In this document: positions 2,794 through 54,694 of the stretch, in pieces | Position numbering within the stretch: position 1 is the first letter of the stretch | How the letters are laid out: each line of letters starts with the position of its first letter | Program-made: the position numbers and the translations under genes | DNA from: Candidatus Magasanikiibacteriota bacterium | GTDB taxonomy: Bacteria; Patescibacteriota; Patescibacteriia; Magasanikbacterales; UBA922 | Length of the DNA stretch: 64,000 nucleotides | Direction: 5' to 3' | Assembly: GCA_018651085.1 (NCBI GenBank) | Contig: JABIEQ010000014.1 | Location: forward strand, 97,807-161,806 | The notes under the pieces: model-generated | Databases searched by the model: none | What the model was told of the DNA's origin: nothing | Seen by the model: the letters and a program-made list of their open reading frames with translations, nothing else

Positions 2794-3957
2794 TTATACG
2801 GCTAAGGCTTCATGAATATATTGTTCCCAAGTAACTCGAAGAGCAGAAACAGTAATAGCATCTAACACTGGACCCACATGGGCATAGAGCATAAGCTTTT
2901 CTGCTTGCTTTTCTGATAACCCTCGAGATTGTACATAAAATAAATCTTCCTTTCTAAGGCGGGTCGTTGTCACCCCATGAGAGCAAGACACATCATTATT
3001 TGCAATCTCTAAATCAGGAACAGCATCAATAGCAGCTTTATCTGACAATAAAAGGGTATCTTCTTGCTGATACCCAGCACATCCTTTTGCTGATGTTTCA
3101 ACTCGAATAAGCCCACGATACGTTGCTTTTGATTCGTCCCCTAATACAATCTTTGACACAATGTTAGAGGCTGTCTCTGATCCTTTATGAATAACAGCAC
3201 TATATGTATCAAAAACACTTTTTTTGGTTCCTACAACAAGACCATAAATTTCTCCTTTCGCTGATACATCGTTAAGCGTATGCACCATACTCGAAAGAGT
3301 AAGAGCTCCACCAAGCTGTAGATCAATAAACGTCATACTCCCCTTTTCTTCAATATAACTTTGCCGACAAATAGCAACATGTCCATTCTTTCGATATTGA
3401 TCAGCAATATATGTTAGGCTAGCATCTTTTTTTATAAAAATATCAATAATTACTCCATGATACATCGTAGATCTAATATCTTCTATAATAGTTGTAGACA
3501 CACCAGCATCGACAACTATGCAGATATAACTTTGTGATGTTCCTTCTATGGCATCAAGCACAAAAGAAAGGGAAACATCTTCTTTCATGTTTTCCGTAAT
3601 ATGAATAACTTTCGCGGTCATAAATAATGCCGCCGTCGTTGCATAAAAAGCATTAGCAGAAATACGAGAAGCTGTTGATAAAATTTGATCAGTAATAATA
3701 TCCTTAGACATAGCGTCAAAAAGGGACAAGACCTCTACGCCAGGAAGTGTTTCTTTTAACAAAAATGTTGCAGGGTTCGATTGAACACTAAGATCTATCC
3801 CAGTAGTTTTTGTAACCATTCGAATACCATGCTTAAGCATATCTATTGGAAGCATTGCTGATTGGTGTATAAAATCAAGCCGACGCGCCGTAAGCCACGA
3901 TGGTTCTTGTTGATTCATTGAATACGTTTCAATTGTTTTTATAAACAAATCTGTCAT
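2794..3957 (-). CDS. sufD: Fe-S cluster assembly protein SufD
   Basis: A 387-aa ORF paralogous to the sufB C-terminal domain, in the conserved suf position. Confidence 0.8.
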   Translation of the reverse strand: MTDLFIKTIETYSMNQQEPSWLTARRLDFIHQSAMLPIDMLKHGIRMVTKTTGIDLSVQSNPATFLLKETLPGVEVLSLFDAMSKDIITDQILSTASRISANAFYATTAALFMTAKVIHITENMKEDVSLSFVLDAIEGTSQSYICIVVDAGVSTTIIEDIRSTMYHGVIIDIFIKKDASLTYIADQYRKNGHVAICRQSYIEEKGSMTFIDLQLGGALTLSSMVHTLNDVSAKGEIYGLVVGTKKSVFDTYSAVIHKGSETASNIVSKIVLGDESKATYRGLIRVETSAKGCAGYQQEDTLLLSDKAAIDAVPDLEIANNDVSCSHGVTTTRLRKEDLFYVQSRGLSEKQAEKLMLYAHVGPVLDAITVSALRVTWEQYIHEALAV

Positions 3958-3960
3958 ATA

Positions 3961-4611
3961 TTATAGTGAGCGCGCAACGATTTTTTCATAGATAGAAGAA
4001 ATACGAGAAAGGATGTTCTCATCTTGTTGTAAAAATAATACATCTTTTATAACAGCATCAATCAAATCAGAATGAATATCTGTCTCTGACCAAATCGCTT
4101 CGTAATCATGTACAGATATATCATGCTTTTTCCCTCTATACACTTCCTGCACGCAGGTGTTATACAACTTTACGGCTTCTATGGGTTCACAACTTCTATT
4201 TTCCGCGTGATTAAGATAATCAAGATTTGCTTCCATATCAAAAGAATCAAAATCAATCATATCCTGCACAAGTTTAATAGCAGATATACGAATCCACCAA
4301 TCTTCTCCACGCTCTTTTGGAATAAGATCAGATAATTCTTCCATAAACAAATCATGCTGCACCTTATCGCAAAGCACATGCACAGCCCAGCCCTTTAAAA
4401 AATCATCAGGGGCATTACTCGCATCAAGCAAATCATTTCTATGAGTTAACTGTCTATTAATACCAGAAATGTATCGACTATCTGGATACACGGTACCTGA
4501 AACATAACGCATGAGATTTTTAACCTCATACTTTTTTTGAAGTGCAAGAGCAAATCGAATATGTGTTGCTTGAAATGCCATAAAATTATCCAACACTCCC
4601 TTCCATTTCAA
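3961..4611 (-). CDS. Hypothetical protein inserted between sufB and sufD, possibly a metal-dependent hydrolase; the true start may be at 4581 (MAFQATH).
   Basis: A 216-aa ORF whose 5' end overlaps the sufB 3' end by 26 nt. Its His/Asp-rich motifs (HIRFALAL, YPDSRY, HVLCDKVQHD) are not a recognised Suf component. Confidence 0.5.
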   Translation of the reverse strand: MKWKGVLDNFMAFQATHIRFALALQKKYEVKNLMRYVSGTVYPDSRYISGINRQLTHRNDLLDASNAPDDFLKGWAVHVLCDKVQHDLFMEELSDLIPKERGEDWWIRISAIKLVQDMIDFDSFDMEANLDYLNHAENRSCEPIEAVKLYNTCVQEVYRGKKHDISVHDYEAIWSETDIHSDLIDAVIKDVLFLQQDENILSRISSIYEKIVARSL

Positions 4612-7638: not shown

Positions 7639-7701
7639 AGTAATTCATACTCAGCCAGTATGATATACTATTTATAAAATTATGTCAATCTAGCAAATAT
7701 T

Positions 7702-16650: not shown

Positions 16651-17028
16651 GGTTAAATTAGGATATTCATTTTGTAACAATTTTTTTTCCTCATTAGGTA
16701 GACTATCCAAGCAAAGTACTTCCTCTACTTCTCCAAATATGACATCTTTTAGACTAGTGAGACTACTAAGGTAAAGAGTTCCTCCCACATCTGGTAAAGT
16801 TATATCTTTTAAACTCGTTAAACTACGAAGAGCAAGATGCCCTTCTACATTTCCAAAAGTTACACCTTCTAAACTAGTCACACTACGAAGATCAAGATTT
16901 CCTCTTACATCTCCAAAAGTTACACCTTCTAAACTAGTCACACTCATAAAGAGAAGATCTCCTCCTACATTTGATAGCGTTACATCCTCTAAGTTCGTCA
17001 CAGCACGAAGGTCAAGATGCCCTTTCAC
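16642..17028 (-). CDS. Leucine-rich-repeat protein, five 22-aa repeats, GTG start, no signal peptide
   Basis: Tandem units (L/A)LRSVTSLEGVTFG(D/N)V(R/E)G(N/H) are visible at both the protein and DNA level. The GTG start overlaps the stop of the upstream ORF as ATGTGA. Confidence 0.55.
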   Translation of the reverse strand: MKGHLDLRAVTNLEDVTLSNVGGDLLFMSVTSLEGVTFGDVRGNLDLRSVTSLEGVTFGNVEGHLALRSLTSLKDITLPDVGGTLYLSSLTSLKDVIFGEVEEVLCLDSLPNEEKKLLQNEYPNLTIE

Positions 17029-17208
17029 ATCTGTAACCAGTCCTCGATTTTTTTTCTTGGTTGCTCTTCCTTCTCTTCCTTTCGTTCTTCACGTTGCCAT
17101 TGCAGATGTTCCACAATTGGCTCTTTATGAAGTGATGGATCTTGCCTATGAAGAAAATGCTCTGGGTTTCTTGGTCGCATAAAACAAATATTATCTAGTA
17201 GACCCTCT

Positions 17209-24305: not shown

Positions 24306-24797
24306 ATGCGATCTTCAACCCACAACCGAAGGTGTACCGTGAAGAGGTTCATGGATTACCACAAGTTCCCGGTGAGGCAAATCAGACAAGCTCGTCTGAG
24401 ATTCAACATCAAGAGACAGGGCGGTATCTGGTACCACGTCAGAGGATGGTACCCACGAAGAATGGTAGGAAAGGAAGAACAGCACCTCGAAGTGTTCTGT
24501 TCTCAACCATACATGATGTGGATGATCGAGAACAACTGCACGGACAAAACCTTGGCAAGCCAGTGGAGCGATGGCAAGGACTACTATGGAGAAATCTACC
24601 TGTACCAAGAAGGACAACAACAACTTAGTGTCTACATGGTCTGGGTGAATCCACAGTTTGGGCAAAAAGAGGAAAGACCTCTTCCCCCAAAAAAGGACTT
24701 GCAACTCATCGCAGCAAAGCGAGCAACAAGAGGTCCAGGAAGTGACATGTGGGAATACATCAACAACAACCACCCACGTGAAGAACTCGACGACTGA
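24306..24797 (+). CDS. GC-rich small-protein family, member A (163 aa, basic N-terminus)
   Basis: About 49% GC. It shares WY-x3-R-x-VG-x3-H and SVYMVWVNP...KEER with member B (WYKADRVGRNPH..., HVWMVLDKEDKER). Its own promoter is upstream and a terminator is downstream. The overlapping ORFs on the other frames and strand are GC artefacts. Confidence 0.7.
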   Translation: MRSSTHNRRCTVKRFMDYHKFPVRQIRQARLRFNIKRQGGIWYHVRGWYPRRMVGKEEQHLEVFCSQPYMMWMIENNCTDKTLASQWSDGKDYYGEIYLYQEGQQQLSVYMVWVNPQFGQKEERPLPPKKDLQLIAAKRATRGPGSDMWEYINNNHPREELDD

Positions 24798-25660: not shown

Positions 25661-25689
25661 TTGACAAAGTCATTATTTTGTGCTATAGT
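25661..25689 (+). promoter_or_regulatory. Sigma70-type promoter TTGACA-17nt-TATAGT driving member B
   Basis: TTGACAaagtcattattttgtgcTATAGT. Confidence 0.65.
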
Positions 25690-25696
25690 GTGTTGT

Positions 25697-26017
25697 TACA
25701 ATGAATGATTCGACAGGACCAATGGGTGACGTACATTAATACGTACTCTATTGGTTCTGTTGAATCAAAGAAGACCGAGATTTCTACGATGCGAATAAAG
25801 CATACCAATCGTAGACCTTACTCGCTGTATTTCCATACCGTCACTCAAGACAGGAATGGATAAATACACCGGATGCAGGAAAAAATCTCACAACCAATCA
25901 AGAATATCCCCCCTTATGTATCTCGCTCGATACAAAAGGCATCCTAGAAGGCATGACAATCTAGGTATAAGTCGGATGCCCGTCTGGTAAACGGGACTAC
26001 CTCCCTCGGAGGTTATC
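25697..26017 (+). other. Structured 5' leader of about 320 nt (possible cis-regulatory RNA) upstream of member B
   Basis: About 45% GC, with several perfect hairpins (CTACGAT..ATCGTAG; CCCGT-ctggtaaa-ACGGG). GGAGG sits 7 nt before the ATG and no convincing ORF is present. Confidence 0.4.
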
Positions 26018-26374
26018 ATGAGCACGAAGGTTACAGGAGAAGAGCTCAAAGAGATGTTCGAAGGAATGAACCCTCCCGAAGGTTCACCAACATGGACAAA
26101 ATGGGACCTTTTCCTAGGCATCCTCGGAAAAGAGTACCAATGGTACAAAGCAGATCGAGTGGGAAGAAACCCCCACGATTTCTTAGTCTCGTGGATGAGC
26201 GTCGACGGAAATCTCATCGAAATCGAGTCCTCCGCCCCAGACTTCAGTTGGGAGCTCCAGGTCATGAGGAGCAACCAACCTCACGTGTGGATGGTCCTCG
26301 ACAAAGAAGACAAAGAACGTGAAGAAAGCGCGTTCAGCATCCTCGCCGAGATCATCAACGCTCGTCTCACATGA
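26018..26374 (+). CDS. GC-rich small-protein family, member B (118 aa, acidic)
   Basis: About 52% GC, with a GGAGG SD. It shares the core motifs with A, C and D. Confidence 0.7.
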   Translation: MSTKVTGEELKEMFEGMNPPEGSPTWTKWDLFLGILGKEYQWYKADRVGRNPHDFLVSWMSVDGNLIEIESSAPDFSWELQVMRSNQPHVWMVLDKEDKEREESAFSILAEIINARLT

Positions 26375-31849: not shown

Positions 31850-31938
31850 ACAAAAGTCATAATTAAATCGTTGTAAGGAGGGTGTAGATGAAATTCAGTT
31901 TCATCTATACCCTCCGCGCAAACGCGAAAGAGGATGAT

Positions 31939-32160
31939 TTAGATGATGAAAAACGCCACAAGTGCGTAAATTGCAGTAGATTCTGCAAGTGCCACACCAA
32001 TAATCATGTTGGTGAAGATCTTTCCTTCAAGCTTTGGATTTCGTCCCATAGCTTCAATAGCCTTACCAATAAGGTATCCTTCTCCGATTCCAGATCCTCC
32101 CATAGTAACGGTACAAAGACCTTTGGCAATAAGCCGTGCTGAGTCAATATCAAGTGCCAT
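31939..32160 (-). CDS. atpE: ATP synthase Fo c subunit
   Basis: A 73-aa two-helix hairpin with a conserved carboxylate in helix 2 (GVALAES). Confidence 0.85.
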   Translation of the reverse strand: MALDIDSARLIAKGLCTVTMGGSGIGEGYLIGKAIEAMGRNPKLEGKIFTNMIIGVALAESTAIYALVAFFII

Positions 32161-34819: not shown

Positions 34820-36316
34820 CTATAAACGAGGAAAAAGTGGATCTCCTTTTGTAAGTATAGCATGTTCCTTAAGTCTTCCCCATTCTTTTTCTTCAGCAAA
34901 AGAAGAAAGATTATTGTGATCAATGCCAAGAGCTAAGAAAATTTGTTCTGCTGCACCAGGAATAATAGGTAAAACAGATAGAGCAATGTGACGCAAACAT
35001 TCTGCTAATTCATATAACACTGATGAAATGTCTTCTCCAGCATTCGCCTTTTCCCATGGTTTTTGTGCTGAAATATATTTATCGCACTTCGCAACGAATC
35101 CATTAACAAGAGACACTAACTCATCAAACCGGTATGTTTCAAAAGCCCGATCATACGCTTCCCAAAAAGTAGCCGTAGAAAAAACATCCGGGACCAAAGA
35201 AGGTACTTTTCCTTCATTATATTTTTCTACCATGGTAAGAATACGACTTGTAAGATTCCCTATTCCATTTGCAAGGTGAGCAGTATAAAATTCTTTAAAT
35301 CGTTCTTCTGACCAGTCTCCGTCGTCATATGCTGGGAGTGCACCCAAAAGATAAAACCGTACAGCATCTGTTCCATATTTTTCTACCACATCAAATGGGG
35401 CCACAACGTTTCCAACACTTTTGCTCATTTTTTTTCCTTCTGACGTAATAAATCCATGGATAAAAATTTGTTTTGAGGGTGAAAGTTTTGCTGACATAAG
35501 CATGGCTTGCCACATAGCAGATTGCTGACGAAGATTATCTTTTCCAGCAACCTGTACCCCAGGCCAATACGCATTAAAGTCCCCTTCTTCTGGCCAGTTA
35601 AGCGTAGAAATATAATTTACAAGGGCATCAAACCACACGTACATAACGTGATCTTCATCATTTGGAACAGAAACGCCCCACGGCATCTTTGATTTCAATC
35701 GAGACACACTAAAATCCTTTAATCCACCTTCGACAAAATTTTTAATTTCTTGCAATCGATTTTTTGGAACAACAAAATCAGGATTATCTGCATACAACTT
35801 CAAAAGTGGTTCCTGATATTTAGAAAATCGGAAAAAATAATTTTCTTCATCAATCAATTCAATTTCGTACGTTGGATGAATGTCACATTGACCATCAACT
35901 AACTCTGAATCTGTTTTTTCAAGTTCACACCCAACACAATACTTTACTTGATACTGTTCTTTATAAATATCTCCATTATCAAAACATTTCATCCAAAATG
36001 CTTGTGCAGCTTTTTTATGTTTTTCATCCGTCGTCCGAATAAAATTTGTATAACTGACATTCAACGCACCTTTAAGGGCATCAAACTTTGCAGCATACTC
36101 GTTAACATAGTCTTGCGTGTCCATACCGCATTCCTCGGCCTTTCGATGGATCTTAAGCCCATGTTCATCCGTTCCAGTATTAAATACCACTTCCTTTCCA
36201 AGCATTCGTTGATACCGACAAATTGCATCAGCCTGCACAATCTCAAGAGCAAACCCAATGTGTGGATCTGAATTAACGTACGGAAGAGTTGTTGTAAGAT
36301 AAAACGATTGTGGCAT
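34820..36316 (-). CDS. metG: Methionyl-tRNA synthetase
   Basis: HIGH-type motif (PYVNSDPHIGF) and KMSKS. Confidence 0.9.
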   Translation of the reverse strand: MPQSFYLTTTLPYVNSDPHIGFALEIVQADAICRYQRMLGKEVVFNTGTDEHGLKIHRKAEECGMDTQDYVNEYAAKFDALKGALNVSYTNFIRTTDEKHKKAAQAFWMKCFDNGDIYKEQYQVKYCVGCELEKTDSELVDGQCDIHPTYEIELIDEENYFFRFSKYQEPLLKLYADNPDFVVPKNRLQEIKNFVEGGLKDFSVSRLKSKMPWGVSVPNDEDHVMYVWFDALVNYISTLNWPEEGDFNAYWPGVQVAGKDNLRQQSAMWQAMLMSAKLSPSKQIFIHGFITSEGKKMSKSVGNVVAPFDVVEKYGTDAVRFYLLGALPAYDDGDWSEERFKEFYTAHLANGIGNLTSRILTMVEKYNEGKVPSLVPDVFSTATFWEAYDRAFETYRFDELVSLVNGFVAKCDKYISAQKPWEKANAGEDISSVLYELAECLRHIALSVLPIIPGAAEQIFLALGIDHNNLSSFAEEKEWGRLKEHAILTKGDPLFPRL

Positions 36317-36324
36317 ATATATAA

Positions 36325-36738
36325 TTAACCTTTTTCAAAAGCAAACCCTTTTTTAATAATCTGTTTAGCATTAGGCCATAAAAATGTATATTCATCAAGT
36401 TCATGAAGGTCTATCCAAGCAAAAGAAAGATGCTCATCACTAAGGATAACAGGATCATTACTTTCAATAAAAGAAATAATTGCACAAATCGATGTCTTTG
36501 TACGCTCGATATACCAGATATCAGAATCAACAAGACCGAGATTTTTATAAGTAGTACAACCAATTTCTTCTTTCAGTTCACGAGAAAAAGCAACTTTTGC
36601 AGATTCCCCTTTATCTATACGTCCCCCTGGAAGTCCCCAATAACCAGGTGAACTTGCAAATTCAAGAATAAGACATTTTCCTTCATGCATAATAATTGCA
36701 GCTTGTGAAATTTGAAAATATTCAAAATTATTTTCCAT
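36325..36738 (-). CDS. NUDIX hydrolase
   Basis: Nudix box GGRIDKGESAKVAFSRELKEEIG. Confidence 0.85.
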   Translation of the reverse strand: MENNFEYFQISQAAIIMHEGKCLILEFASSPGYWGLPGGRIDKGESAKVAFSRELKEEIGCTTYKNLGLVDSDIWYIERTKTSICAIISFIESNDPVILSDEHLSFAWIDLHELDEYTFLWPNAKQIIKKGFAFEKG

Positions 36739-37002
36739 ATATATTATATATCATGATATACTTTGTATCGAGACAACGTTGGTACACTTAAACGAGTTCC
36801 CATACGAAAGTATGGTCCTAAAAGCTGCCGCCTGTAACAAGGTGTGAAAGCACCACAGGAAAGGTGAACGCTGTATAGGTACGCCAACTGGGGGCTGAGG
36901 GAATTGTTTCGTATGGTCAAAGGCACTATCACGGAAGAACACTTACCAAAGAACCTTTTTGCACCACGAGAGAGCGTCTTCTCCCCCACGTCTCTCTCAT
37001 TT
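36739..37002. ncRNA. Candidate structured ncRNA of unidentified class, in a GC-rich intergenic block
   Basis: A 264-nt gap between two co-oriented genes at about 50% GC. It carries a perfect hairpin with a GAAA loop (CCATAC-GAAA-GTATGG), an alternative pairing partner TTTCGTATGG 90 nt downstream, and a GAGAGAG..CTCTCTC stem. No family-like ORF is present. Confidence 0.35.
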
Positions 37003-37671
37003 TTATGAAACGACAATAACAAATTCTCCTTTCGCGGGAATATTCATTTCAAGAATTTCAGACATTGTTCCACGATATATTGTTTCAAACTTTTTTGTTA
37101 ATTCTCGACACACACAAACTTGTTTTTTTTCATCAAGTCCCTCGGCTAATTGCTTGAGGGCTTTTTCTATCCTATGACACGATTCATAAAACACGACCGT
37201 ATGTGTTGTAGCACAAACCCTATCAAAAAATTGCTGTCGACGTTTCTTATGAGGTGGAAATCCTAAAAACGAAAATGAATCTAACCGAAAGCCACTAATT
37301 GATAGGGCTGTTACAACGGCTGAAGCACCAGGGATAGGCACAATAGACACATCAGGAAGTTCATGCCTAACCGCGAACACTAGTTCACCACCAGGATCAC
37401 TAATTCCGGGAGTCCCAGCATCAGTAACAAGCGCAACATCATCTCCTTGGCGAAGCATATCCATAATCTCATCCGTTTTCTTTTGAGCACTATGCTGATG
37501 GTAGCTTCTTGCATGAGTATCAATATTATATCGAGAGAGTAATCTTGATGTCACTCGTGTATCTTCACAAAAAATCACTTCAACTGCTTGAAGTGTATCA
37601 ATGGCTCTCTCAGAAAAATCCCCAAGATTTCCAATAGGCGTAGCGACGATATATAAAGTAGGATTAGTCAT
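37003..37671 (-). CDS. rsmI: 16S rRNA (cytidine1402-2'-O)-methyltransferase
   Basis: Tetrapyrrole-methylase fold with YIVATPIGNLGD and VTDAGTPGISDPG. Start taken at MTNPTLY. Confidence 0.85.
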   Translation of the reverse strand: MTNPTLYIVATPIGNLGDFSERAIDTLQAVEVIFCEDTRVTSRLLSRYNIDTHARSYHQHSAQKKTDEIMDMLRQGDDVALVTDAGTPGISDPGGELVFAVRHELPDVSIVPIPGASAVVTALSISGFRLDSFSFLGFPPHKKRRQQFFDRVCATTHTVVFYESCHRIEKALKQLAEGLDEKKQVCVCRELTKKFETIYRGTMSEILEMNIPAKGEFVIVVS

Positions 37672-44188: not shown

Positions 44189-44208
44189 AAAAACACCCCT
44201 TAAGGGTG
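44184..44208 (-). terminator. Rho-independent terminator of cassette C, minus strand
   Basis: CACCC-ttaag-GGGTG followed by TTTTTTT on the minus strand. It overlaps the fmt stop codon. Confidence 0.7.
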
Positions 44209-44300
44209 AACAAATGTCTGTGCAGGAACCCCCAAGCCGCTACACAGACGGTGTGGGGTTGAGGGTTTCTGCGAATTGCGGGCTGTTCGAGCGGCCGACC

Positions 44301-44600
44301 TTAGTTGGTCGGGTATTCTTTCAGCTGACGCAAAGATCTTTCCGTGAAGTCCCACGGACGCCGGGGATTGCTCATGAAAACAACCCAGTACGTCTCAGTG
44401 ACCTTGCCAGTGTCGTCACCATCGCCAGTGTCGTCACCATCGTCAATGTCGTCACCATCGTCAATGTCGAAAGTCATCGCGCCCTCTGCACGACAAAAAT
44501 CGATGAGATCATCATGATTAAGAGGGAAATCTCTCTCCCTCAACACGATGACTCTGGCAGGGCAAGGACCGGACGAAACCGGCCGGAAATCAGCGAACAT
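44301..44600 (-). CDS. GC-rich small-protein family, member C (99 aa, acidic, with a DDGDD repeat tract)
   Basis: AGGAGG SD 7 nt before the ATG, about 55% GC. TYWVVFMSNPRRPWDFTER aligns with the family core. The opposite-strand 136-aa ORF is rejected. Confidence 0.65.
   Translation of the reverse strand: MFADFRPVSSGPCPARVIVLRERDFPLNHDDLIDFCRAEGAMTFDIDDGDDIDDGDDTGDGDDTGKVTETYWVVFMSNPRRPWDFTERSLRQLKEYPTN
44401..44469. repeat. Tandem 18-bp repeat, about 3.5 copies of GTCGTCACCATCG(C/T)CA(G/A)T
   Basis: Read directly from the sequence. It encodes (D-D-G-D-D-I/T)n within member C. Confidence 0.85.
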
Positions 44601-44641
44601 AACGTGCCTCCTATGGGCTTCTAGAGAAAAGCTGACAAAAA

Positions 44642-44670
44642 AATATACCACAAAAACCCTCTTTTGTCAA
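44642..44670 (-). promoter_or_regulatory. Sigma70-type promoter TTGACA-17nt-TATATT driving member C
   Basis: Read on the minus strand: TTGACAaaagagggtttttgtggTATATT. The -35 lies inside the CCCTCTT..AAGAGGG palindrome. Confidence 0.6.
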
Positions 44671-54214: not shown

Positions 54215-54694
54215 CTACGCCGATATCTCAATCTCAGTATCTTTATACACCCAATACTTATATAAAAAGAAATTCCATGAGACCATAAGAGCAATGGTAC
54301 CAATGCGAACTAAGCGATAATCATATGAAAGAAGATCATGAAAGATGTACATGAGAAGTACGGATATTCCATAATTACAGGCAGCTAATATAAAATATCT
54401 CACCAATTGTGTATGCGGAATAGCCGTATTTCGAAAAGACCAATATTTATTAAGTGTGAAATTATACCCAAGAACAATGGATTGATTAACAATCACAGCA
54501 AAAACAGGAGTCCATCCAAATACTGTCGTAAAAAAAATAAGCGTCGAAAGATCAATAACGAGTCCAGATACTCCAACGACAACATATTTCACAAATTGAT
54601 GCCGAAGTGACCAAAAATAATCACATGTTTTACGAATCATAAAAAAAGTATAACACAGAAATAAAAAGAAAGAAAAAAGCCCTAATATAAACAA
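54215..54694 (-). CDS. GtrA-family membrane protein
   Basis: 4-TM ORF with the GtrA-like motifs VVGVSGLVIDL and NKYWSF. Confidence 0.7.
   Translation of the reverse strand: MFILGLFSFFLFLCYTFFMIRKTCDYFWSLRHQFVKYVVVGVSGLVIDLSTLIFFTTVFGWTPVFAVIVNQSIVLGYNFTLNKYWSFRNTAIPHTQLVRYFILAACNYGISVLLMYIFHDLLSYDYRLVRIGTIALMVSWNFFLYKYWVYKDTEIEISA

Follow-up and report, generated by a model that had tools for sequence, protein, structure and literature searches.

In transcriptional riboswitches and attenuators, a structured 5' domain precedes antiterminator and terminator helices that compete with each other, and the Listeria B12 riboswitch with AspocR is an example of a riboswitch gating an antisense RNA. 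Ordinary bacterial small RNA genes possess their own promoter and intrinsic terminator and are often species-specific. The literature searched contained no description of a small RNA or native riboswitch for Patescibacteria, the Candidate Phyla Radiation (CPR). The present study deals with a 64,000-nt stretch of contig JABIEQ010000014.1 of a Candidatus Magasanikiibacteriota bacterium (hereafter, the window) and with the 264-nt GC-rich block at positions 36739-37002, which fills the gap between rsmI and a NUDIX hydrolase gene, both located on the minus strand. It seems possible, and is our tentative preference, that the block is an orphan plus-strand gene for a structured RNA of ~235 nt with an attenuator-like 3' end, inserted in a conserved operon.

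Like riboswitches and attenuators, the block comprises a promoter motif, a folded domain of ~110 nt, a switching segment and a hairpin followed by a U-run, and, as in the case of riboswitch-gated antisense RNAs, only the antisense of a gene lies downstream. Unlike them, its domain fits no known aptamer class, no ligand or sense target can be named, the block is not conserved, and only calculated energies predict the switch. It resembles ordinary small RNA genes in being a predicted stand-alone unit of ~235 nt that is non-coding, structured, lineage-restricted and convergent with its neighbour. In contrast to ordinary base-pairing small RNAs, it is unusually GC-rich and multi-domain, and neither a target nor a chaperone can be named.

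Composition and coding potential

The raised GC content reported in a preliminary description of this DNA was confirmed, with 0.50 at 36800-36999 versus 0.366 for the window. It amounts to 0.447 over the gap as a whole, 0.48 for the predicted RNA (36770-37004) and 0.48-0.51 for the structured part of the block; the first 31 nt (36739-36769) have a GC content of 16%. According to a rough ORF map, the GC content of other large gaps is mostly 0.28-0.42, versus 0.48 for the predicted RNA, and ORFs cover ~93% of the window, so that long non-coding stretches are rare.

The block is non-coding, as follows from the negative codon scores, the flat GC content across codon positions, the lack of a protein match and the empty gene calls. 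The 92-codon open frame spanning the whole block on the operon strand (36744-37022, minus strand) was judged not to be a gene. Its GC content at codon positions 1/2/3 is 0.43/0.44/0.45 versus 0.52/0.36/0.22 in genes here, and its codon score is -0.32 versus +0.16 to +0.64 in 25 real genes; the scores are negative in all six frames of the block. A concatenated six-frame translation, meant to catch conserved or spurious ORFs overlying a homologous RNA, found no match at E <= 10 among 5.8 billion proteins, not even itself, which means that no pipeline ever called a gene in the block. Nor does the gap contain a gene in the annotations displayed for two contigs of the same strain. In the 31-codon plus-strand frame (36913-37008), the stop codon comes only after the U-run of the terminator-like hairpin described below. 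Conservation of an ORF across homologues, which the preliminary description had regarded as speaking against an RNA, was not observed for any ORF of the block.

Promoter-like motifs and predicted transcript ends

A putative extended -10 promoter-like element, TGATATACT, is located at 36754-36762 on the plus strand, with a predicted transcription start at ~36769-36770. The motif TGNTATACT, which it contains, occurs eight times in the window versus 2.28 expected (positions 7661, 9766, 34854, 36754, 37741, 46095, 54647 and 57380), and only one of 100 shuffles reached eight. Of these sites, six or seven precede the start of a gene on their own strand by ~30-90 nt. Because the sites are mostly found 30-90 nt upstream of same-strand genes, the motif behaves as an extended -10 element, and, judging by sequence, TGNTATACT is probably the main extended -10 promoter form of this organism. 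The copy at 36754 faces the GC-rich sequence of the block and not a gene. Taken together, the promoter motif, the plus-strand fold, the GAAA loops and the terminator predict a non-coding plus-strand transcript of ~235 nt at 36770-37004, bounded by the predicted start and the end of the U-run, as placed by the promoter motif and the terminator-like hairpin.

The minus strand of the same region contains a sigma-70-like site that may serve as a promoter for NUDIX-metG (36743-36771; TCGATA, 17 nt, TATAAT; 10 of 12 consensus positions). The NUDIX ATG follows 4 nt after its end, and the position of this putative promoter suggests that the NUDIX mRNA is leaderless or nearly so. Since the insertion brings a promoter-like site directly before NUDIX-metG, it probably uncouples these genes from rsmI.

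Some observations concern the initiation of translation in the window. The minus-strand TGNTATACT copy at 54647-54655 is followed by an ATG 7 nt further on, which suggests a leaderless mRNA. Shine-Dalgarno-like motifs within 20 nt were found at eight of the 79 predicted starts, and some of these eight belong to GC-rich ORFs or a spurious ORF. It appears that native genes begin translation without Shine-Dalgarno pairing.

Predicted secondary structure

The predicted 5' domain (36778-36888, plus strand, 111 nt) is a three-way junction with an interrupted closing stem, two GAAA-capped hairpins and, between these, a single-stranded 11-nt linker, UCCUAAAAGCU. The closing stem includes the helices GUUGGU/GCCAAC, ACUUA/UAGGU, ACG/UGU and GUUC/GAAC. 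The structure of minimum free energy (MFE), -36 kcal/mol, makes up 25% of the ensemble. The CCAUAC-GAAA-GUAUGG hairpin with a GNRA-type loop (H1), noticed earlier in the DNA as CCATAC-GAAA-GTATGG, was found again at 36800-36815 and has a pair probability of 0.99. The second hairpin, H2 (36831-36859, plus strand), reads CCUGU / AACAA bulge / GGUGU-GAAA-GCACC / ACAGG and has pair probabilities of 0.81-0.86.

The fold z-scores of the block given here refer to dinucleotide shuffles. The predicted RNA 36770-37004 has an MFE of -72.5 kcal/mol and a z-score of -2.35, and two of 200 shuffles fold as well. The strands differ in this respect: the whole block or RNA scores -2.3 on the plus strand and 0.09 on the minus strand, and the 5' domain scores -3.10 (with one of 200 shuffles as good) and -0.52, respectively. 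The inner part of the domain (36796-36870) reaches -3.4 on the plus strand, and the segment 36889-36988 scores -1.3 on the plus and -0.1 on the minus strand. The two tetraloops are GAAA in the plus-strand sequence and would be UUUC on the minus strand, and the U-G closing pair of H2 with its GAAA loop is present on the plus strand only; GNRA loops and G-U pairs are confined to this strand. Across 802 background windows of 111 nt, the mean z-score is -0.39 with a standard deviation of 1.35, and 4.7% of the windows have z <= -3; compared with the genome's own background, the predicted fold signal is moderate. The RNA appears to consist of two parts, a well-defined 111-nt 5' domain and a 3' part containing a G-rich segment. 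A second copy of the 5' domain was found neither in the window nor in 49 other loci tested.

Terminator-like hairpin and alternative pairing

The predicted RNA ends in an intrinsic-terminator-like hairpin (36968-37004, plus strand), GAGAGAGCG...CGUCUCUCUC, with a 10-nt C/U-rich loop and a subsequent A-UUUUU-A (-12.8 kcal/mol, z -3.24). Its stem includes the pairing of GAGAGAG (36968-36974) with CTCTCTC (36992-36998), which had been seen before and was verified. The hairpin abuts the rsmI stop codon (37003-37005), and the succession of GAGAGAGCG...CGTCTCTCTC and ATTTTTAT exists on the plus strand only. The terminator scan tool missed it; the tool permits loops of up to 8 nt, versus 10 nt here. 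An anti-Shine-Dalgarno role of the C-rich loop is unlikely, since native genes rarely have such sites.

Between the 5' domain and the hairpin lies the G-rich segment UGGGGGCUGAGGGAAUUGUUUCGUAUGG (36889-36916, plus strand), which includes the previously reported GGGGGCTGAGGG at 36890-36901 and has two competing partners, the 5' arm of H1 or the 5' half of the terminator. The preliminary description had supposed that a sequence 90 nt downstream of H1 could form a mutually exclusive helix with a segment of that hairpin. Indeed, TTTCGTATGG (36907-36916), which begins 91 nt past the end of H1, is the perfect 10-bp complement of CCATACGAAA (36800-36809), the 5' arm and loop of H1. Such a helix occurs in 2.7% of dinucleotide shuffles (p 0.027). 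Positions 36889-36912 of the segment can pair with the terminator 5' arm and loop (36966-36988), and this duplex is predicted at -23.3 kcal/mol versus -16.5 +/- 3.0 kcal/mol for shuffled sequences (p 0.024). One segment can therefore pair with either the 5' domain or the terminator. The antiterminator-like fold (-72.5 kcal/mol) and the terminator fold (-66.3 kcal/mol) are ~6 kcal/mol apart. Mutually exclusive helices linking the 5' structure to the terminator are present as sequence potential only, and the predicted competition is attenuator-like, in keeping with the logic of a transcription attenuator or a riboswitch expression platform.

On the reading preferred here, the lineage-specific insertion would contain a small non-coding RNA gene of its own that is read from the plus strand, against the direction of rsmI-NUDIX-metG. 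Transcription would start at ~36769 from the extended -10 element and proceed to ~37004 at the hairpin and U-run. The most likely mode would be that of a structured regulatory small RNA with a conditional terminator at its 3' end. With an intact 5' domain, the G-rich segment would be available for pairing to the 5' half of the terminator, and transcription could continue into rsmI in the antisense direction. With the segment bound by the 5' arm of H1, the terminator would form and a short stable RNA would be released. A more specific version, in which the 5' domain would be the aptamer of a new single-lineage class of riboswitch or attenuator gating the terminator and an antisense transcript over rsmI, seems improbable.

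Position in the operon and absence from relatives

The identity of both flanks was as earlier described. The product of rsmI (37003-37671, minus strand), a gene convergent with the predicted RNA, is 100% identical to protein P0001 of Candidatus Magasanikbacteria, annotated as 16S rRNA (cytidine1402-2'-O)-methyltransferase; the next-best rsmI relatives show only 63-67% identity. The NUDIX hydrolase gene (36325-36738, minus strand) matches Pfam PF00293 with an E-value of 1.2e-14. It is followed by metG (34820-36316), and the gene order rsmI-NUDIX-metG is also present in relatives.

Three relatives (loci L058, L059 and L060) keep this gene order with only 2-10 nt between rsmI and NUDIX; in other relatives, rsmI and metG are separated by nothing or by unrelated ORFs. 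The surroundings of rsmI or NUDIX were examined in eleven relatives, none of which has the block. The slot between rsmI and metG is hypervariable among Magasanikbacteria relatives (L038-L040, L058-L060, L065, L066, L068 and L070), being occupied by nothing, by NUDIX or by unrelated ORFs of 69-696 aa. Since relatives have only 2-10 nt, nothing or unrelated ORFs at this place, the block is, by sequence comparison, a lineage-specific insertion at a hypervariable spot. Only identical same-strain copies of it were recovered (L041, L042, L061 and the chimeric L067); the nearest relatives, with rsmI at most 67% identical, lack the block. Assemblies of this strain also exist for SRR3724508, ERZ4200974 and further runs.

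A metagenome scan with one 25-mer, partly exact and partly reduced to purine/pyrimidine, returned one self copy and three chance matches. Three viral scans gave chance matches or nothing, and BLAST searches of phages and plasmids gave no match. No homologue was found by nhmmer in 70 fetched loci and the window, or by a covariance model of the 5' domain (R1) in 49 loci and the window. Locus L067 (ENA scaffold HAWL17-1...31823) was considered as a closer relative and dropped as a chimeric contig. Its first 886 nt, covering the end of rsmI, the block and the first half of NUDIX, belong to the same strain and are 99.8% identical to the window; the sequence then switches abruptly inside NUDIX to an unrelated one, resulting in a false 'NUDIX + cNMP-binding' fusion protein (P0166).

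One Magasanikbacteria relative with an rsmI product 67% identical (L065) has a 351-nt gap downstream of rsmI (3679-4029, minus strand of the locus). This gap contains a TGCTATAAT promoter-like motif, a GC-rich element of ~125 nt and two terminator-like hairpins reaching the rsmI stop codon, and it has no Rfam match. The element and the block are alike in their spot and orientation, the promoter-like motif, the GC-rich core, the terminators at the rsmI stop codon and the length of ~240 nt. They are unlike in sequence, the best local match being an 11-mer (p 0.09, not significant), and in predicted fold; the 5' part of the L065 element folds weakly (z -1.2).

Comparison with known RNA families

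The search with Rfam 15 at gathering thresholds gave no match anywhere in the window. The preliminary description had recommended a check against the RNase P, SRP, tmRNA, 6S and riboswitch models, and none of these families was matched even at E <= 10, where 551 nt and 253 nt of the region yielded two chance matches only (STnc240 with 18 bits and CRISPR-DR42 with 16 bits). The block is no detectable member of any known RNA family. ARAGORN found no tRNA or tmRNA in the window, and Rfam likewise found no tmRNA. SRP RNA, which is characterized by a helix 8 with a GNAR loop and conserved AGCA/GGAA loops, was rejected, as there was no Rfam SRP match at E <= 10 and, by eye, the flanking motif is present at neither GAAA hairpin. 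Many 6S RNAs escape Rfam, so the fold weighs most in the test for this family; the predicted fold has two side-by-side domains and is not a rod of paired 5' and 3' halves with a large central bubble, and Rfam gives no 6S match. Known riboswitches and T-boxes were dismissed as well, with no Rfam match on either strand and no gene downstream on the plus strand for 770 nt. A 5S RNA and an 11-nt tetraloop receptor were considered by eye and dropped because their defining motifs are absent.

The suggestion that the block is a candidate non-coding RNA is supported in part. The codon test, the promoter motif, the terminator and the fold support a non-coding structured RNA, and the hope for an essential RNA (RNase P, SRP, tmRNA or 6S) is unsupported, as Rfam, ARAGORN and a custom RNase P model are negative and relatives lack the element at this site. 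The combination of no Rfam hit and no transcript had been named as speaking against the candidate; as to its first half, the Rfam hit is indeed lacking.

Alternative explanations

Several points weigh against the proposed RNA gene. Matches to a promoter and a terminator can occur by chance in AT-rich DNA, and the terminator loop of 10 nt is unusually long. The 5' domain ranks only 21st among the 802 windows (top 2.6%), with its limits set after the fold had been seen, and a GC content of 50% is not unique, as several coding islands of the window reach 52-59%. Both shuffle p-values of the alternative pairings are modest and come from tests chosen after inspection of the sequence; the helix and duplex signals are independent of the 802-window ranking. 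The proposed switch has no plus-strand gene downstream to act on, since only antisense rsmI follows, and then a peptidase gene 770 nt off. Finally, no diverged homologue was found in the metagenome pattern, viral, phage/plasmid or fetched-locus searches.

The main rival, doubtful in itself, is a non-functional remnant of foreign or rearranged DNA in the variable rsmI-metG spot, with motifs that are incidental or come from a lost cassette. It agrees with the hypervariability of the site, where relatives have nothing, unrelated ORFs or an unrelated RNA-like element, with the lack of a homologue of the block in the searches made, with a fold z-score that is not extreme for the genome and with the presence of other GC-rich, foreign-looking islands in the genome. 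However, long non-coding stretches are rare in a window covered by ORFs to ~93% on the rough map, and the putative remnant would have retained 48% GC in a 37% GC genome. Moreover, the promoter motif, the fold asymmetry, the GNRA loops and the terminator agree on one strand, and there are two separate alternative-pairing signals with p ~0.025 each.

Some other origins of the block were rejected. A repeat or MITE was dropped, as the window contains no second copy of the block, and an internal duplication, as its halves align no better than shuffles. A pseudogene was dropped after tblastn of all frames versus the genes inserted in relatives returned nothing, and an integron attC site after inspection by eye, since the defining motifs are absent. 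The GC skew is uniformly negative across the window, which rules out a replication origin or terminus.

A minus-strand element, either a 5' leader or riboswitch of NUDIX-metG or a 3' untranslated region of rsmI with its terminator, is quite improbable. The block does lie inside a minus-strand operon, and T-boxes and other leaders of aminoacyl-tRNA synthetase genes are widespread in other phyla. However, the predicted minus-strand folds are not more stable than those of shuffles (z 0.09, -0.5 and -0.1 for the block, the 5' domain and the 3' segment), its loops read UUUC, and it contains no hairpin followed by a U-run. There is no T-box or riboswitch match at E <= 10, a promoter-like site stands directly before the NUDIX ATG, and relatives manage with 2-10 nt here.

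RNase P RNA received extra scrutiny because diverged CPR forms have been reported to escape Rfam thresholds: in 10 of 35 CPR genomes, the RNase P RNAs were diverged and below these thresholds, some of them lacking P12-P14 and P18 (PMC8172020). The block might then be a strongly reduced, divergent RNase P RNA without the specificity domain, as imaginable for a CPR bacterium. Compared with class A RNase P RNA (RF00010, including the CPR forms of PMC8172020), the block has AGGAAAG, AUAGG and CACG..AGAA..CUUA motifs and a possible P2/P3/P4-like pseudoknot; AGGAAAG...AUAGG and CACGGAAGAACACUUA look similar, on inspection by eye, to the J3/4-P4-J5/7 and J2/4-P4 motifs. The rsmI adjacency also finds a parallel, as rnpB adjoins rsmI in four proteobacterial loci. 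A relaxed P4 descriptor (GGAAAG, AAG:CUU, a 1-nt bulge, two more pairs and AGAA 2 nt before CUUA) matches this RNA, 0.015% of shuffles (a chance of 1.5e-4) and four of four true rnpB genes, with two other matches in ~1 Mb, both strands counted.

However, this descriptor was loosened after the sequence had been seen. The full P4 pseudoknot criterion comprises GGAAAGUCC, a bulged U and ACAGAA...GGCUUA; the putative P4 here has only 5 bp and a bulged G in place of the universal U, and UCC is absent. A second threading, incompatible with the first, fits equally well by eye, which points to over-fitting. P5, P15 and the specificity domain (P7-P11, J11/12 and J12/13) cannot be placed in 235 nt, a length to be compared with the 337-402 nt of the true rnpB genes here, and a MAFFT alignment with the latter leaves this part empty. 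RF00010 and RF00011 remain unmatched in 551 nt or 253 nt of the region even at E <= 10 (roughly below 16 bits), and the region is not recovered with nhmmer profiles built on conserved blocks of RNase P RNA. A model restricted to the catalytic core (R2; P1-P2-P3, J3/4-P4, P5, P15, J18/2 and J2/4), built from four true rnpB genes and the RF00010 structure line, assigns 20-43 bits to true rnpB and at most 2.4 bits to this RNA (2.4 and 2.2 bits), which is absent among the 31 window matches of at least 4.8 bits. The element is also absent from the same site in relatives. After trials of the two threadings, the descriptor, MAFFT, nhmmer and the catalytic model, the profile results led to the rejection of RNase P RNA. 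A bacterial RNase P RNA without the specificity domain is nearly excluded. The case calls for caution, as short RNase P-like motifs in purine-rich RNA can be convincing by eye and nevertheless fail every profile test. The four loci with rnpB next to rsmI (RF00010, 297-338 bits) are L031:3893-4247, L033:3916-4252, L036:3837-4238 and L011:2556-2921; this linkage was found in four proteobacterial genomes and was not seen in the other phyla sampled.

Least probable of all is a small protein gene in the 92-codon minus-strand or the 31-codon plus-strand frame: a frame open over all 264 nt on the operon strand and ending 5 nt before NUDIX is somewhat unexpected, and the plus-strand ATG is preceded by a GAGGG motif at a distance of 11 nt, but every frame has a negative codon score and the codon-position GC is flat, there is no similar protein at E <= 10 and no deposited gene call, the plus-strand stop codon falls past the U-run, and Shine-Dalgarno sites are rare in native genes here (8 of 79).

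Other features of the window

Two GC-rich ORFs (24306-24797 and 26018-26374, both plus strand) stand amid minus-strand genes, have GC contents at third codon positions of 0.57-0.61 versus 0.22 in native genes, and possess canonical AAGGAG/GGAGG sites; neither has a Pfam or PHROG match. By sequence, they look like recently acquired foreign genes and are probably the 'GC-rich protein family' mentioned in the preliminary description. Upstream of the second ORF, the region 25662-26017 (plus strand) contains a promoter-like site, TTGACA-N17-TGCTATAGT, and then a strongly structured leader of ~320 nt. Windows at 25761-25871 have z-scores of ~-5, and elsewhere in 24.8-26.5 kb z ranges from -4 to -6.

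The GC-richest stretch of the window (0.59) is 44189-44651. An 18-nt tandem repeat at 44406-44469 (3.6 copies, 95% matches) lies in a 116-codon minus-strand ORF (44301-44651) with DIDDGDD-type acidic repeats, which overlaps the start of a plus-strand membrane-protein ORF of 519 aa. Tandem repeats of 60 or 120 nt (3-4 copies, 74-83% matches) at 16721-17032 are located in minus-strand ORFs and suggest a repeat protein. A near-perfect 37-nt palindrome (31878-31914, z ~-7) is found just downstream of an ATP synthase c-subunit-like gene (31939-32160, minus strand), and an 84-codon plus-strand ORF at 31888 overlapping this gene is spurious.

Biological significance

Knowledge of regulatory RNAs in the CPR is almost nil, and the present value of the candidate is that of a single-lineage lead. 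If verified as a stand-alone structured RNA with a conditional terminator of its own, it would be a first concrete example of RNA-based regulation in reduced CPR genomes, situated inside a conserved housekeeping operon, and it would provide a useful part for genetic tools.

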